Shown here piece by piece: positions 41,201 to 47,200 of a DNA stretch of 64,000 nucleotides. The stretch is from a plasmid, in assembly GCF_057098645.1 (NCBI RefSeq), contig NZ_JBXSPU010000003.1; one strand, given 5' to 3'. How positions within the stretch are numbered: the first letter of the stretch is position 1; the number at the start of each line of letters is the position of its first letter. A program made the position numbers.

Positions 41201-44200
41201 AAACAAAGACACCTATCAGGGACTCATTCATGCAAATGCTTTCCAACCAAAGGCAACTTACACTTCCCCATTCATTCAAATGCTTTCCGACCAAAGGCAA
41301 CTTGCATTCTCCTATTCGTGCAAATGCTTTTCGAACAAAGGCACCTTACACTGTCCCTTGCGAGCCCTGCTTCCCGACCAAAAGCAACTTTCACCGCAGC
41401 ATTCATACAAATGCTTTTTTCAAAAGGCACTTTTCTGCCGCCATTGAAGCAAATGCTTTTATACAAAAGGCACTTTTCTGCCGCCATTGGAGCAAATGCT
41501 TTTATACAAAAGGCACTTTTTTGCTCTCCATTGAAACAAATGCTTTTCATCTCCTTGATATCCAATTTGAGTAATTTTCATTTATTATCAGAATGTTATG
41601 TTATTTCTCTAGGTCCTTCATTGGCCTGCATATTCATAAAATGCCGTCGACCAGGCTCATATCCCAGTCGTTTGCAGGCGTTAAGGAACTGTAAATACGC
41701 CGAGTGGCACAAGGAGTATAGGGATTTGCGTTTAAAGCCCAATACAACACGATGGAGGGTAGTGTAGTTAAAGGCATATGTATGAATGAGTCTTATTAAA
41801 CTAGCAAAATGAATAGGTTACGTTGTCTCAACTAGCAAGCATGATTTTTTCTGAAAAGCATTCGAACGAATACCAGAAGAACCCGGGTATCAGAAATGAT
41901 AGGAAGTTTGGAAACAGGGAAGGGTGTTCAAATCCGGAGAAACATTAAAAAGCATTTGGATGAATGCCCATACTCCTCATTACATCCAAAGTAACTTTTG
42001 TGCGTACTATACCCGGAGCATCAACTGTGTTTTGCCAGAGCAAGTTTTGGACTTCTTTTAAAAATCTGGAACTGGATATCTCTACCTTTCTTAACCTCTT
42101 GATATTCAAGATATCCTATTGATTTTAACTCCAGCATCGCCTTCCTGATGATCTGGTTTTGAGTTCGTACAGGAGTCGTCAACAGAAGTCGCTCACGCAA
42201 ACGCTTCATGCTTACGAATAGCGTACCGGCAGGCATCGCCTCAAAATATATGTACAGGCTTTGTGCTGCCTCTTTTTTAGCGAGAACCGAAAGCACCTGC
42301 AAACTAAGTAAGGTTTTATGATCATACCGGTAAAGCTCCCACATTGAGGGATCGCCCACCAACTCTACGGTGTCCTTCTTAGGATCAATCACTGCTTTCT
42401 GCACAAGGTGCGTGACAGTAAAACGTTCAGTTTTTGAATCACGGAAAGAAATCACAACGGAAGCTAGGTTTGCTAGCGCCTCCTGAAATCGTGAGCGAGT
42501 TCGCTTGTTTATGTTTGTAGAACTGATACCACACATTTTTGCAAACTCATTGAATGACAATGTGATTTTATCGGAAGCGAAACCATATTTGCTGAACGCC
42601 ATTATGCAACCGAGCCAACACTTAAAATCGGTTGACATCGAAAGCTTAAGACCAGTGATCCGAATGTCATCGTATCCTTCTGAACGGGCCAGCTCCATGC
42701 TCGACAACTCATCAGAAGCGTCAACCTCAAAATTTCTGTATCGCTTCTCTTTAGTTCCCACCGGGGTAAAAACACTTAAGCGCAGTAAAGCAATGGGTTG
42801 GACCGATTTCGAAGAGTTTGGACTCAGTTGATAAGTCTTCCCTGTCTCCGTGTTGGTCACATCAAAAGGATGTGTTACCTCATTGTTATCACTCATTTAA
42901 ATTTACCCACCATGGTTTATCCCTTGATACATTTAGATGTGAATAGATTATTCGTGCAAATGCTTTTCTCGCATTAAACTAAATGCCTTTTCAATTCAAG
43001 TAAATGCTTTTCTTATTCAATCAAATGCTTTTTACATGCACCTGAATGCCTGATCATGCTTATTCCATAATAAAATCAGTTATTTACGGCACCTGTGATC
43101 TTTTTTGTACTCTCTTGATCTCTCTTGATCTAAAGAATTGATCTAACTTGTGGAAAACGTGGATAAATTCCGTCTGTTAACCAACTCTGACCTAAAAAGT
43201 TCAGGTTCGGACTCTAGCCAAGTAGGGAATGCAGCCGGAAGAAGTATCAATCAATCTGAAGCTTTTAAGATATATTAATTTCAAACCATTCAGATTTAAA
43301 AATTTCAAATTAAAATGGCCTAATTCCTTCATAACTAAAATTACAGTCAAGCACCGAATTAATTGTTTTTTGCTTTTGGGTTATTTGAAACTGAGTCAAT
43401 TAATGTATCATGTAATAAAAAGGAGGTTATATGAATCACTGCGACTATCAGATTATTGAGATCAGTCCTAAAGCACTTTTTATCGAATCTGGATTCAATC
43501 CACGTGAAGCGGTAATTGGTGAACTTTGTTATGAACAGGAACCAGTAAAATCGACCATTGTTTCTATTAAACAAGCCTATAAAGAGGGCAGACGAGTCGA
43601 TTTAATTAAGGTTGTTAAGAAAGACTCCAATTACGTTGTAAGGCAGGGGCATTGCCGTTACAGAGCACTATCTCTTGCTCTTGCGGAAGGAGCTGATATT
43701 CAGCTCATTTCAGTAGTTGTTATGAACTATAAGAATAAAAGTGAAGAATACCTGGAGAACCTTGATGGGAATAGGAATAACGGTCTTAATCCCGTAGCCT
43801 TAGCTTATGCACTGGCAGAGGCGCTGAAGCTTGGCTCTACCGTTGAATCCCTTGCTATGCGCTATCAACGGTCTAGCACTGCTATTCGTAACCAGCTTAA
43901 AATCCTTGATATGCCTTTAGAACTACAACGTTTAATCAGTCTAAACCTGATTAAAAAAACACTCGCGATTGAGATCATGTTGAAGTATTCCAATGACCAT
44001 GCAAAAGTCCTTGCACATTTGGAATCGTGTTCTCTTTTAGTACCATCAACTGAACCAGAACCTGTTTTATCTAAGACATCAAGCGTTCAAACATCATCAA
44101 ACGATGAGAAACTAGATAACCCGGAAACACTCCCTGTTCATGTTATTCCTAAGGAAGTTAAAACAAAATCCATCACTCGCAGTTCATTGGGTATTAAACG

Positions 44201-47200
44201 GCTTTCTCATAAAAAAACTGAACGCTTAAAAACTGAATTTATCGGGCTGATTGATACTGTACGGCCAGCACTAAACGACAGTAATAAACTCACCGAATTA
44301 ATTTTCGACGGACAACATTCCAATTTATTTACGAACATCAGCAGCACTTCCATCACAAAGACAACGGAAAGTGTAAAGATCACTCTAGATGAAGCAAAAC
44401 TCCAGCTTTTATTAAGCCTTCTGAATGATGAAAATACTGCTATCATCATTCCAAAATCTAAGGTTACAGAACTGCATGAAATTCGTGACCTGTTAACAAG
44501 TGAGTAGAATGCTAAGGACCGTTTATGGACAAGATTGCACAGTTTACTGTAATTAATACTTATAACGATCTACTTATTACAAAAGGCACACTCGATCGCA
44601 ACATTGAAGAGATCAAGGCTGGAAAGCGTTTTGATCATTTTGAAGAAGGGCACGATCAATACGTACAGAAGGTAACTGACGCTTTACAGCTCGTGGAGGC
44701 TCGACTGGAGAACCTTAAAAAATGAAACATTCTCTTTTTTTTACTCAGGATGGTTATTTACTGCCATCATCCGTAAAGCCTATCTACGGTAAAGATGGAC
44801 ACTATTACGCCGTTATCACCCGTGAGTGTTTTGAATGCGGAGGGACTGGAAAGATTGCGAACGCCGTCTGTGTGACATGCAATGGCTCCAAAACGTCTCC
44901 AGCCACAGAGGAAAAGCTGGTACTGAAAGAGTGCATTGAATTCCTTGAAACTATCCCGGAACTTCGCTGCAATCCCGATCTTGAAGCCTGGAAACGTAGG
45001 CACAGCGAGCAGTTAGCATTGCTGCAAGCTGACAATTCTAAGTTTGCAGCAAGCATTGCACAGCAGTTAAACAACAATCTCTTTTTAACAGTCCGTCAGT
45101 TGGAGTCTTTCTACTCGACATACCAGCCTGTTTCTAAAGCTTTTTCAGAAAACGCCGGTTTTCCAATTGAACATTCTTTCAACATTGGTGATGTAGTTAG
45201 TTTTGATATTATTTTGGGTATCCGGAATTTCTGGTTGATAAAATGTCAAAGATGTAAAGAAGAAAATCTTTCTCAGCGGATTATCTGATTGATCCTCTTC
45301 AGCCTACTCTACTGCCAATTTTCTGTTTCCACCTTCGCCTGAGTCTTCATAGCGATGCTGACTAGGGAGGACAGCGAGAGCTGGGCAAGCGTCAAAGCGG
45401 TTCTGGTTCATGCGCAATCCGGACACCTGCACAACATTCCTCTTGTAAGAAACCGATCAAATTCTCTAGGTGCCCATACTCGGGTATACAGACAATCGTG
45501 CGGCTATGTTTCTCCTGCCGGATCAGCCCTACCTTGGCCATGCGCGCAAGGTGATGTGATAGCGTCGAAGCAGGAATACCCAGCCCCTTCTGGATATCTC
45601 CGACCGAAGCCCCATCATGGCCAGCTTTGACCAGAAAGCGGAACACGGACAGTCGGTGACTATTCCCTAGCTCAGCTAAGCTGGCTGCAACCTTTTCGTG
45701 ATCCATAGCACGCCCCAATAATTCGATGTTTCTAGAATTATAGTTGACAGGTCGGATAAACGCAAGTAGGCTGCGTACATCATTTCGATAAAACTAGAAA
45801 TATAGGAGTAATATTGAATGTCACCTCAACTCCAAGACGCTCTAGGCATGTTCGCCTTTCTCGCTATCGAGCTATCGGTTTTATTCATTGGCATTAGCTT
45901 GCTGGTCGGAGTTCTTCAACGTCACATCCCACCATCCAAGGTGGAAGCGTTACTGACTTCCAGTGGGAAGCGAGGCTATTTTCTTGCTGCTGGTTTAGGA
46001 GCTATAACGCCCTTCTGTAGTTGCTCGACTATCCCCATGTTGAAAGGGTTGATTCAGGCACGGGCCGGTTTTGGGCCGATGATGGTGTTTCTTTTCACAT
46101 CTCCGTTGCTGAATCCTATCGTCGTCGGCCTGCTGGTTGCCACGTTTGGATGGACACTTACTGCTATCTATGTGCTCGCCGCTTTGGTGGTCGCGGTAGG
46201 TGCCGGATGGCTGCTTCACACGCTTGGCTTCGAGCGTTATGTGCGCCGGACGGCGACACAAGAGAGCAGTGGATGTAGTTCATCAGCAAGCCCGTGCAGT
46301 GCTACATCGACCGCATCGAGTTGCGGCACCAACAGCTGCGACACCACTCCGAAGACGGCTTCTTGCGGGGCTGATAGGAAGACAACAGTCTCTACGTCTA
46401 GCGAATGCTGTGACAGTCAACCCACTGTCACGGTTAAGAAAGAAGGGAAGTACAATGGTGTGTGGCGGGAAGCTTAGTCGGACTTTATCGATGTGTTGCC
46501 TTACCTGCTCATCGCTATTGCGATTGGCAGCGTGATCTATGGTTTCATGCCCACTGACTTATTGGAGCAGTATGCAGGCCCAGATAATCCCTTTGCCATT
46601 CCAGTTGCCGCTGTCATCGGCGTGCCGTTGTATATTCGCGCTGAAGCCGTCATACCTCTGGCAGCGGCTCTGATGGCCAAAGGCGTGGGTGCCGGGACGG
46701 TGCTTGCGTTGATCATCGGCAGTGCCGGAGCCAGCCTGACTGAGCTCATTCTGTTGCGCTCTTTGTTCACGCTGAAGCTTTTAGCGGCGTTTTTAGCAGT
46801 CATTTTTGCTATGGCGATGATTGCCGGTTACGCCACCTACCTGTTTTTCTGATCAAGGCGGGAGATGATTAATTCGTTAAGCCTTCCTGGTTACCAGTTG
46901 GTGGATTCTGATGAGCAGAATGAAGACATACATTTTCGGCTTGAAGCACCTACACCAGTAGCCTGCGAGGGGTGCTGCGTGCAGGGTGAGTTCGTGCGGT
47001 TCGGCAAGCGTGATGTTCCCTATCGTGACCTGCCCATCCACGGCAAGCGGGTCACCCTCTGGGTAGTTCGTCGCCGGTACACCTGCCGGGCCTGCAAGAC
47101 CACCTTCAGGCCCCAGCTACCGGAGATGGTGGACGGCTTCCGCATGACGCTGCGGTTGCATGAGTACGTGGAGAAGGAAGCCTTCAATCACCCCTACGCC

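Follow-up and report, generated by a model that had tools for sequence, protein, structure and literature searches.

The window analysed here is a 64,000-nt stretch of the plasmid contig NZ_JBXSPU010000003.1 (assembly GCF_057098645.1), and all coordinates refer to it unless the plasmid R27 or the metagenomic relative L003 is named. The gene under study, here given its R27 name R0037, lies at 43431..44507 on the plus strand as an intact open reading frame (ORF) with an ATG start and encodes an orphan ParB-like protein of 358 aa (WP_001015069.1). As judged from its predicted structure and from profile comparisons, R0037 is a stand-alone relative of the ParB/KorB/Noc family of DNA clamps, which includes ParB, Noc, KorB, VirB, BisD and HerB, and by analogy with these its most likely role is in regulation and not in partition. 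The more specific proposal favoured here, to which about an even chance is given, is that R0037 would be a nucleotide-gated, sequence-specific DNA-binding dimer of the KorB/BisD/VirB kind, modulating transcription in the transfer-linked backbone of the plasmid. This reading is favoured because of the fold, the retained pocket residues, the orphan status of the gene, its context and its co-regulation. Fold, motifs, the helix-turn-helix (HTH), the lack of partition features and synteny were observed directly, and co-induction was taken from published arrays.

The plasmid of the window is an R27-type IncHI1 plasmid, collinear with the prototype R27 (NC_002305.1) at 97.5-99.9% identity except for insertions, deletions and differences in the length of repeat arrays. 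The R0037 protein is 100% identical to ORF R0037 of R27 (R27 40890-41966), and more than 200 IncHI1 plasmids, among them pYPE10-190k-tetX4 (typed IncHI1A, MOBH, MPF_F), share the 5 kb around the gene at 100% identity. ORF calling returned exactly the coordinates given by the initial annotation, with a complete gene of 358 aa. The genes tet(X4) and mcr-1 and the multidrug resistance of typhoid are found on IncHI1 and IncHI2 plasmids, the transfer of which is tightly regulated. Orphan regulators with the fold of the cytidine triphosphate (CTP)-hydrolysing ParB proteins are already a recognised class on mobile elements, to which R0037 adds an uncharacterised member; the class includes KorB, VirB, BisD, HerB and Noc (10.1101/2025.10.10.680097).

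Fold, motifs and domains of the R0037 protein

The AlphaFold2 model of R0037 has a predicted local distance difference test score (pLDDT) of ~90 for residues 5-200. Foldseek searches with this model gave as top matches Noc (7ol9), KorB (8qa9, a KorB-KorA complex, and 8qa8), ParB-CTP (7bnr and 6sdk) and Spo0J (1vz0), with E values of 1e-8 to 1e-6 over ~200 columns, and sulfiredoxin lower in the list over 105 columns. Noc was also the best match of R0037 in a single-sequence (phmmer) search of the PDB, at E 1e-4, and the family profile matched the HTH regions of Spo0J and Noc in the PDB at E 1e-9 to 1e-7. PHROG 1033 ('ParB-like partition protein') spans residues 9-195 with an E value of 9e-24. 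Because of the PHROG, PDB profile, AlphaFold2 and Foldseek evidence, R0037 is assigned a ParB/Srx N-domain followed by a ParB-type HTH, in agreement with the complete ParB-fold protein described in the initial annotation. The HTH, also named there, is covered by the Pfam family HTH_ParB (PF17762) at residues 119-180 (E 7e-4, 20.1 bits, just below the cut-off of 22.6) as well as by the family profile. There was no match to PF02195 (ParBc) in the Pfam scan, and the N-domain alone gave chance matches only against the PDB sequences. The segments of the protein, all on the plus strand, are as follows.

Residues 21-26 (43491..43508): GFNPRE, equivalent of box I / C-motif; G21, F22, N23 and R25 invariant
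Residues 73-79 (43647..43667): GHCRYRA, equivalent of box II / P-motif; GxxR kept, with E to H and R to C relative to GERRxRA
Residues 109-115 (43755..43775): ENLDGNR, box III region; DGNR opposite ENLQ of Bacillus subtilis ParB (6sdk) in the profile alignment
Residues 119-180 (43785..43970): ParB-type HTH DNA-binding domain (Pfam PF17762 and PDB profile matches)
Residues 245-358 (44163..44504): lineage-specific C-terminal domain, 3' of a disordered linker (206-244) and a basic segment

The motifs GFNPRE and GHCRYRA, on which the initial annotation had drawn, are thus present in the N-domain, and GFNPR is the counterpart of the 'xQPR' motif of ParB. In an alignment of 18 homologues, including the paralogue R0042 (described below), no variation is seen at residues G21, F22, N23, R25, R71, G73, H74 or R76, and conservation of C75 is at least 90%. 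Both paralogue families, R0037 and R0042, keep GFNPR and Q-G-H-C-R as invariant or at least 90% conserved residues, together with DGN(R/K/Q). HMMER places GHCR of R0037 opposite GERR of Noc and of Helicobacter pylori Spo0J, and R76 is aligned with the box II arginine of the nucleotide-binding relatives, the loss of which abolishes nucleotide binding in ParB, BisD and HerB (PMC12409273, PMC13370423). The recognition helix, RS-STAIRNQLKIL (consensus RS.TAIRN.LKIL), is nearly invariant in orthologues from four lineages.

The C-terminal domain is preceded by the conserved basic segment TRSSLGIKRLSHKKTERLK and is itself conserved among orthologues; a fold search with it gave no significant structural match. 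A profile search of 1.84 billion representative sequences returned 10,095 proteins at E<=1e-3 and 130 at E<=1e-30, a steep drop which indicates that the close R0037 family is small. More distant members of the family are also orphans on mobile elements. For the ParB field, the family offers a natural box II variant (GHCR vs GERR) along with a new C-terminal domain.

Orphan status, gene context and the case for regulation

The R27 ORF names were assigned to the genes of the window by matching gene order with the R27 array tables. The genes that surround R0037, and the genuine partition genes of the window, are the following.

42021..42896, minus strand: R0036 (repHI1A, the repA gene referred to below), Rep3-family initiator divergent from R0037 (annotation; Pfam Rep3_N and Rep3_C)
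44525..44725, plus strand: R0038, 66-aa ORF, always 3' of the ParB-like gene, with 44-50% identity in the IncHI2, Lelliottia and L003 loci
44722..45288, plus strand: R0039, zinc-finger (CxxCxGxG) ORF, truncated (188 aa vs 235 aa in R27)
Between R0039 and the Dam methylase gene in the R27 gene order: R0040, function not assigned
Next in that order: R0041, Dam methylase
51837..52994, plus strand: R0042, paralogue of R0037, 385 aa, annotated 'partition protein' or 'DNA-binding protein'
Next to it: R0043, DUF4942 methyltransferase
25502-26506, minus strand: genuine ParB, with a GSRRR box
26506-27756, minus strand: genuine ParA, ~17 kb from R0037

A role of R0037 as a partition ParB was rejected because of the absence of a ParA and of a ParA-binding motif, the sub-threshold scores and the presence elsewhere of complete ParAB and ParMR systems and of a tandem array as candidate centromere. 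No ParA adjoins R0037 within several kb, where its neighbours are repHI1A, the 66-aa ORF and the zinc-finger ORF, and none was found beside the orthologues in any orthologous locus (IncHI2, Lelliottia and the metagenomic relative), so that the lack of a ParA partner reported in the initial annotation holds. By regular expression, R0037 has no ParA-interaction motif of the form [LIVFM]G[KR]G[LIVFM] (LG[KR]GL-like), and the first strand of the ParB domain is preceded by 10 residues at the start of the protein. It scores 33.9 bits against TIGR00180, for which the cut-off is 58.45, and falls below every curated partition-ParB cut-off. The genuine plasmid ParB has no detectable similarity to R0037, and ParM and ParR are also encoded in the window.

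The conserved neighbourhood of R0037 is the block R0037-R0044, adjoining the trhA transfer operon. In this block, the trhA operon runs leftwards and is followed by an optional replicon and by R0037-R0038-R0039-R0040 rightwards; Dam then runs leftwards, and R0042, the DUF4942 methylase, a small ORF and an Ig-like protein run rightwards. Synteny of the block (trhA; Dam, R0042 and the DUF4942 methylase) extends to IncHI2, Lelliottia and metagenomic relatives, where identities are 44-58%, and the R0037 orthologues are intact, with 58% identity in IncHI2 and 44-54% in the other lineages (for L003, 44% in the best local HMMER alignment and 50% by tblastn). The products of R0038 and R0039 had no match to a known family in Pfam, curated-family and PHROG searches. 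The paralogue R0042, pointed out earlier at 51837-52994, is 35% identical to R0037 over 195 aa in BLASTP (E 3e-25).

Published R27 arrays suggest a connection of the block with the transfer regulon. In an htdA mutant at 25 °C, R0037 is up 4.2-fold along with R0038 to R0042, the rises across R0037 to R0042 being 3- to 19-fold (PMC7366339 supplement). The strongest non-tra backbone signal on these arrays comes from R0042: 6132 units for the wild type at 25 °C, 2278 for the wild type at 37 °C and 20561 for the mutant at 25 °C. It is among the few genes derepressed in the mutant at both 25 °C and 37 °C (PMC7366339 supplement).

The proposed mechanism takes R0037 as the first gene of the conserved R0037-R0038-R0039(-R0040) unit in the R0037-R0044 block by the trhA operon. 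The protein may bind nucleotide, may dimerise through its novel C-terminal domain and could close as a clamp on DNA, from where it would regulate plasmid genes in the transfer-linked backbone. The earlier suggestion of an orphan protein with a putative regulatory role is supported: regulation is the most reasonable choice over partition by analogy with KorB, BisD, VirB and HerB.

Among these analogues, KorB of the IncP plasmid RK2 is a CTP-dependent sliding clamp and a global repressor (PMC11790492). R0037 resembles it as a plasmid-encoded ParB fold with an HTH, KorB being among its best structural matches; its plasmid carries many copies of a short odd-length palindrome, partly at promoters, as putative operator, and R0037 is expected to act in regulation and not purely in segregation. 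KorB is partnered by a ParA (IncC), keeps the canonical GERR in box II and has KorA and TrbA as locking partners. No such feature was identified for R0037, whose C-terminal domain has no detectable structural relative. BisD of ICEclc is a ParB-like CTP clamp that, with BisC, activates transfer-competence promoters (PMC12409273). The likeness includes the MOBH-type conjugative element, the ParB-like protein with the GxxR motif, an extra non-ParB domain and, for R0037 apparently, the tie to a transfer regulon; the loading sites of BisD are odd-length palindromes and may lie inside genes. However, bisD is found 3' of a parA-like gene, needs BisC and acts with two bisS sites only, and no BisC-like partner or activator domain was recognised for R0037.

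VirB of the Shigella plasmid pINV, an orphan plasmid ParB-like regulator as R0037 would be, is a CTP switch and H-NS anti-silencer (PMC10770331). The transfer genes of IncHI plasmids are silenced by H-NS/Hha and thermoregulated (PMC7366339), and anti-silencing is therefore a conceivable output of R0037 by analogy. Noc of Bacillus, the best Foldseek and phmmer match, is likewise an orphan ParB paralogue that arose by duplication and has dispersed sites. It carries a membrane-targeting N-terminal helix and acts in the control of cell division, whereas R0037 starts directly at the ParB domain. HerB/YfjB of F resembles R0037 in being a ParB-like protein of a conjugative plasmid; it has CTP-binding and HTH modules, a novel dimerisation domain and a function in transcriptional reprogramming. 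In contrast to R0037, which has 358 aa and lies far from the origin of transfer (oriT), HerB has 652 aa and its gene is in the leading region, and its binding to the host chromosome involves no parS-like palindrome (PMC13370423).

The HerB precedent, a plasmid ParB-like CTP-binding protein that acts on the host (PMC13370423), also raises the possibility that R0037 is an establishment or host-reprogramming factor, which would act jointly with the neighbouring orphan methyltransferases once a transconjugant has formed, perhaps on the chromosome of the host. The presence of the Dam methylase and the DUF4942 methyltransferase in the block and the co-induction with transfer genes in the htdA mutant are in line with such a function. 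It is nevertheless quite unlikely: R0037 is ~67 kb from the putative oriT (the mobI-trhR intergenic region, R27 108.1-108.9 kb) and therefore not in the immediate leading region, it does not have the four-domain, 652-aa architecture of HerB (PMC13370423), and PADLOC gave no defence-system match for R0037 or R0042.

Several observations weigh against the regulator reading. In wild-type R27, the R0037 signal does not rise above the detection floor, with 100 and 106 units (PMC7366339 supplement). An accessory insertion of 4.1 kb (45216-49312) cuts R0039 and splits R0040 off the R0037 unit, leaving R0037 and R0038, yet more than 200 records share this sequence, so that at least the downstream part of the unit is dispensable. 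Two positions of box II deviate from GERR, and the Pfam scan gave no match to ParBc, so that nucleotide binding could be altered or lost. No operator was identified, the 13-mer AAAAGTnACTTTT being the sole palindrome common to the orthologous loci, and no biochemical or genetic work on R0037 or its orthologues was found in the literature.

Some of the same observations could mean that R0037 is a decaying paralogue, a relic with little or no function whose activity is carried by R0042. Its very low expression, the lower IncHI1-IncHI2 identity (58% for R0037 vs 74% for R0042), its absence from pNDM-MAR and the disruption of the downstream unit in the lineage of the window plasmid would agree with decay. 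However, all four lineages have an intact R0037 ORF, at identities as low as 44%, with invariant pocket residues, a nearly invariant recognition helix and a conserved C-terminal domain, and decay is regarded as the most improbable of the readings considered.

The dispersed palindrome and its possible binders

The window contains 16 copies of the palindrome AAAGTWACTTT (AAAAGTWACTTTT), where 0.10 would be expected, and R27 contains 42. In its 13-mer form, AAAAGTnACTTTT, it has 26 occurrences on R27 against 0.05 expected and is the only over-represented palindrome, the next ratio being below 4. Sites of the window include 2295, 41988, 49886 and 55383, and those nearest to the genes of interest are listed here.

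41988..41998: AAAGTAACTTT, the nearest exact site to R0037, 33 bp 3' of the repA stop; position conserved in IncHI2
51742..51752: variant AAAGTACCTTT, 95 bp 5' of the R0042 ATG; same variant at the same place in IncHI2
40949..40959: variant AAAGTCACTTT, 5' of trhA, where a 44-bp iteron array has its left edge; conserved in IncHI2

On R27, 21 of the 42 sites are outside the annotated coding sequences (CDSs), which cover 79.6% of the plasmid (p=1.9e-5), and by manual mapping several further sites are within 70 nt of a start codon. Sites or one-base variants are found upstream of trhF, htdT, trhA, R0042 and the Ig-like gene and in the mobI / trhR intergenic (oriT) region, and the positions of all these are conserved in IncHI2. 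Upstream of R0042 (51740-51795), the variant palindrome ends 28 nt 5' of a TAGTAT -10-like hexamer, for which no -35 element is evident. Across 74 sites from five lineages, the palindrome stands alone as a 13-bp element whose flanks are not conserved, and a partner motif or promoter at a fixed distance was rejected for the same set. It is conserved in IncHI1, IncHI2, pNDM-MAR-type and other relatives, including Lelliottia and metagenomic plasmids, and pNDM-MAR has 18 AAAGTWACTTT sites in 40.8 kb. The element is backbone-specific, no exact site being present in the two insertions relative to R27 (21189-23317 and 45216-49312), and 40 kb of an IncC plasmid contain no copy of it. No mention of the sequence in a plasmid context was found in the literature.

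HtdA, TrhR and TrhY are the three characterised regulators of IncHI transfer, and no published DNA site was found for any of them. Two ParB-fold proteins and a very strongly over-represented palindrome together represent a testable entry point to plasmid-wide regulation. The palindrome network is a more striking object than the R0037 gene, which may or may not serve it.

A KorB-like global role would have R0037, alone or with R0042, load at the 13-bp AAAAGTWACTTTT sites and control a plasmid-wide, transfer-linked regulon by sitting there or sliding from them. In favour of such loading are the high over-representation of the palindrome and its distribution, with half of the sites in the 20% of the sequence outside CDSs. 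In Lelliottia, an exact site is 92 bp 5' of the R0037 orthologue and another 114 bp 5' of the R0042 orthologue, this palindrome is the only one (arms of at least 6) common to the orthologous blocks, and the nearly invariant recognition helix of R0037 is found in four lineages that all have the palindrome. As an isolated odd-length palindrome of 13 bp with no flanking element, the site is similar to the KorB operator OB. The bisS site is an odd-length palindrome as well (PMC12409273), and in the sister IncC plasmids a ParB-family protein binds dispersed palindromes (PMC10954446).

Comparison with related plasmids argues against this link, and R0037 is apparently not required for the motif. pNDM-MAR keeps 18 sites yet has no homologue of R0037, R0038, R0039, R0040, R0041 or R0043; it has the R0042 orthologue only, which is also the best match of R0037 in the whole record. 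In the window, R27 and IncHI2, the stretch from the rep gene to the R0037 ATG is free of exact and one-mismatch sites, and R0037 mRNA is scarce, given that its product would need to occupy 42 sites. Other conserved candidates for the binder are R0042, HtdA (29.5% identical in pNDM-MAR), TrhR and TrhY. R0042 co-occurs with the palindrome in all five lineages and has an abundant transcript; its recognition helix is poorly conserved (R27 KSNTTIAALIRL vs pNDM-MAR ISEMAVRQIISL). A Pfam scan of HtdA, TrhR and TrhY for an alternative binder was uninformative.

The IncC/IncA plasmids, a sister MOBH/MPF_F family, can be read on both sides. Their ParB binds 12-14 dispersed parS sites (PMC10954446), a single palindrome being scattered in the backbone, mostly intergenic and by promoters of the transfer regulon; plasmid pR148 (IncC) has seven copies of TTTCACATGTGAAA in 40 kb. 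However, the IncC binder is a ParA-partnered, KorB-type ParB (GERRWRA), remote from R0037 with 27% identity over 112 aa. In IncC, the homologue of R0037 and R0042 is a distinct orphan of 312 aa, for which no palindrome family of its own was found.

On this evidence, loading of R0037, alone or with R0042, at the palindrome is considered unlikely. The wider proposal that R0037 and R0042 would form an IncHI-specific, nucleotide-gated ParB-clamp network on the ~42 AAAAGTWACTTTT sites of R27, coordinating the HtdA/TrhR/TrhY transfer regulon, is doubtful to the same degree. If true, the network would be a KorB-like system, so far undescribed, in a plasmid family that is dominant in the clinic, using an unusual Q-G-H-C-R phosphate-binding motif that may shift nucleotide preference or add redox sensitivity.

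A second conserved palindrome as the own site of R0037 was not found among palindromes with arms of at least 6 shared by at least three lineages, and none was enriched on R27. The inverted repeat over the predicted R0037 promoter (43253-43331) was rejected as an operator, as it is not conserved in the IncHI2 sequence. The strand polarity of the central base of the palindrome, apparent in the window, was gone across the whole of R27 by manual mapping. Outside the window, the palindromes at R27 67018, 92113 and 142406 are each preceded by GCAACCGGG, which suggests a small repeated element carrying the palindrome.

Replicon junction, partition loci and other features of the window

The repA and R0037 genes are divergent, with 534 bp between their start codons. 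As the initial annotation had it, the gene stands beside the origin, and the gap contains the following elements.

42950-43034: three RepHI1A iterons (repeat family D2)
~43095-43145: cluster of four GATC sites, read from the sequence
43149-43166: two DnaA-box-like 9-mers with 8/9 matches, read from the sequence

The pairing with repA, present here, is not conserved in the family. In Lelliottia plasmids, the R0037 orthologue (54% identity) is directly divergent from the pilin gene trhA, with a 243-bp spacer that contains no replicon. IncHI2 has a RepHI1A-like replicon at the same junction, and L003 has an unrelated one (L003 4540-7857) with a 520-aa Rep, ~15 iterons of GGACGGACAYTT, a GATCT cluster and TTATCCACA. 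The unrelated replicon of L003 at the junction of trhA and the ParB-like gene suggests replicon swapping at a fixed position of the backbone.

The location by the origin would be explained if R0037 acted at or near the RepHI1A replication origin (oriV), in copy number, origin pairing, silencing or as an accessory centromere binder. Besides the 534-bp distance and the iterons, GATC cluster and DnaA boxes within it, three of the four lineages with R0037 have a replicon at this junction (in L003 with an unrelated Rep), pNDM-MAR as the sole lineage without R0037 has no replicon adjoining trhA, and the block also encodes a Dam methylase while the origins are GATC-rich. A replicon-linked function is very unlikely all the same, as Lelliottia keeps the gene without an adjoining replicon and the neighbouring replicons differ in Rep and iterons, so that no common target is evident. 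Moreover, R0037 is without the ParA-binding motif, its expression does not follow repHI1A, and R27 is already served by two partition systems and a candidate centromere array at other positions.

A 44-bp iteron array (43-44-bp units), considered as a possible cognate centromere near R0037, is found 3' of repHI1A at 40960-41555, each unit combining a RepHI1A iteron and a degenerate palindrome (AAAG[G/T][C/A]ACTT). The array is longer by 88 bp (two units) in R27, and IncHI2 is without a regular array.

Next to parA, there are two tandem arrays (24 x 52 bp at 28020-29266 and 7.6 x 54 bp at 30068-30476) and, at the start of the gene, a 30-nt inverted repeat (27789-27849). The arrays and the inverted repeat are probably the Par1 centromere, incompatibility determinant and operator. 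Between parM and parR, there is a perfect tandem repeat of 2.4 x 16 bp (TGCAAAACCATCATCA, 19054-19092). R0153, named a 'partition protein' in R27, was rejected as a third ParB-like protein, as by gene order it is the thermonuclease-family gene adjoining a cytosine methylase, which is taken to be of the RP4 ParB type and not ParB/Srx.

The 4.1-kb insertion at 45216-49312 contains an ArsR-like gene, a split permease, insertion sequence (IS)-related ORFs and lnu(G), and its flanking R27 coordinates overlap by 8 bp. Another insertion relative to R27, GC-rich and 2.1 kb long (21189-23317), is in the trhO / metallophosphoesterase region, and the IS30 copy of R27 (R27 51027-52249) is absent at position 57672. 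The htdK gene (R27 16077-16640; ~16360-16920 in the window, minus strand) has a match to Pfam Whirly, a family of single-stranded DNA-binding transcription factors, with 24.6 bits against a gathering threshold of 23 (E 2.5e-5).

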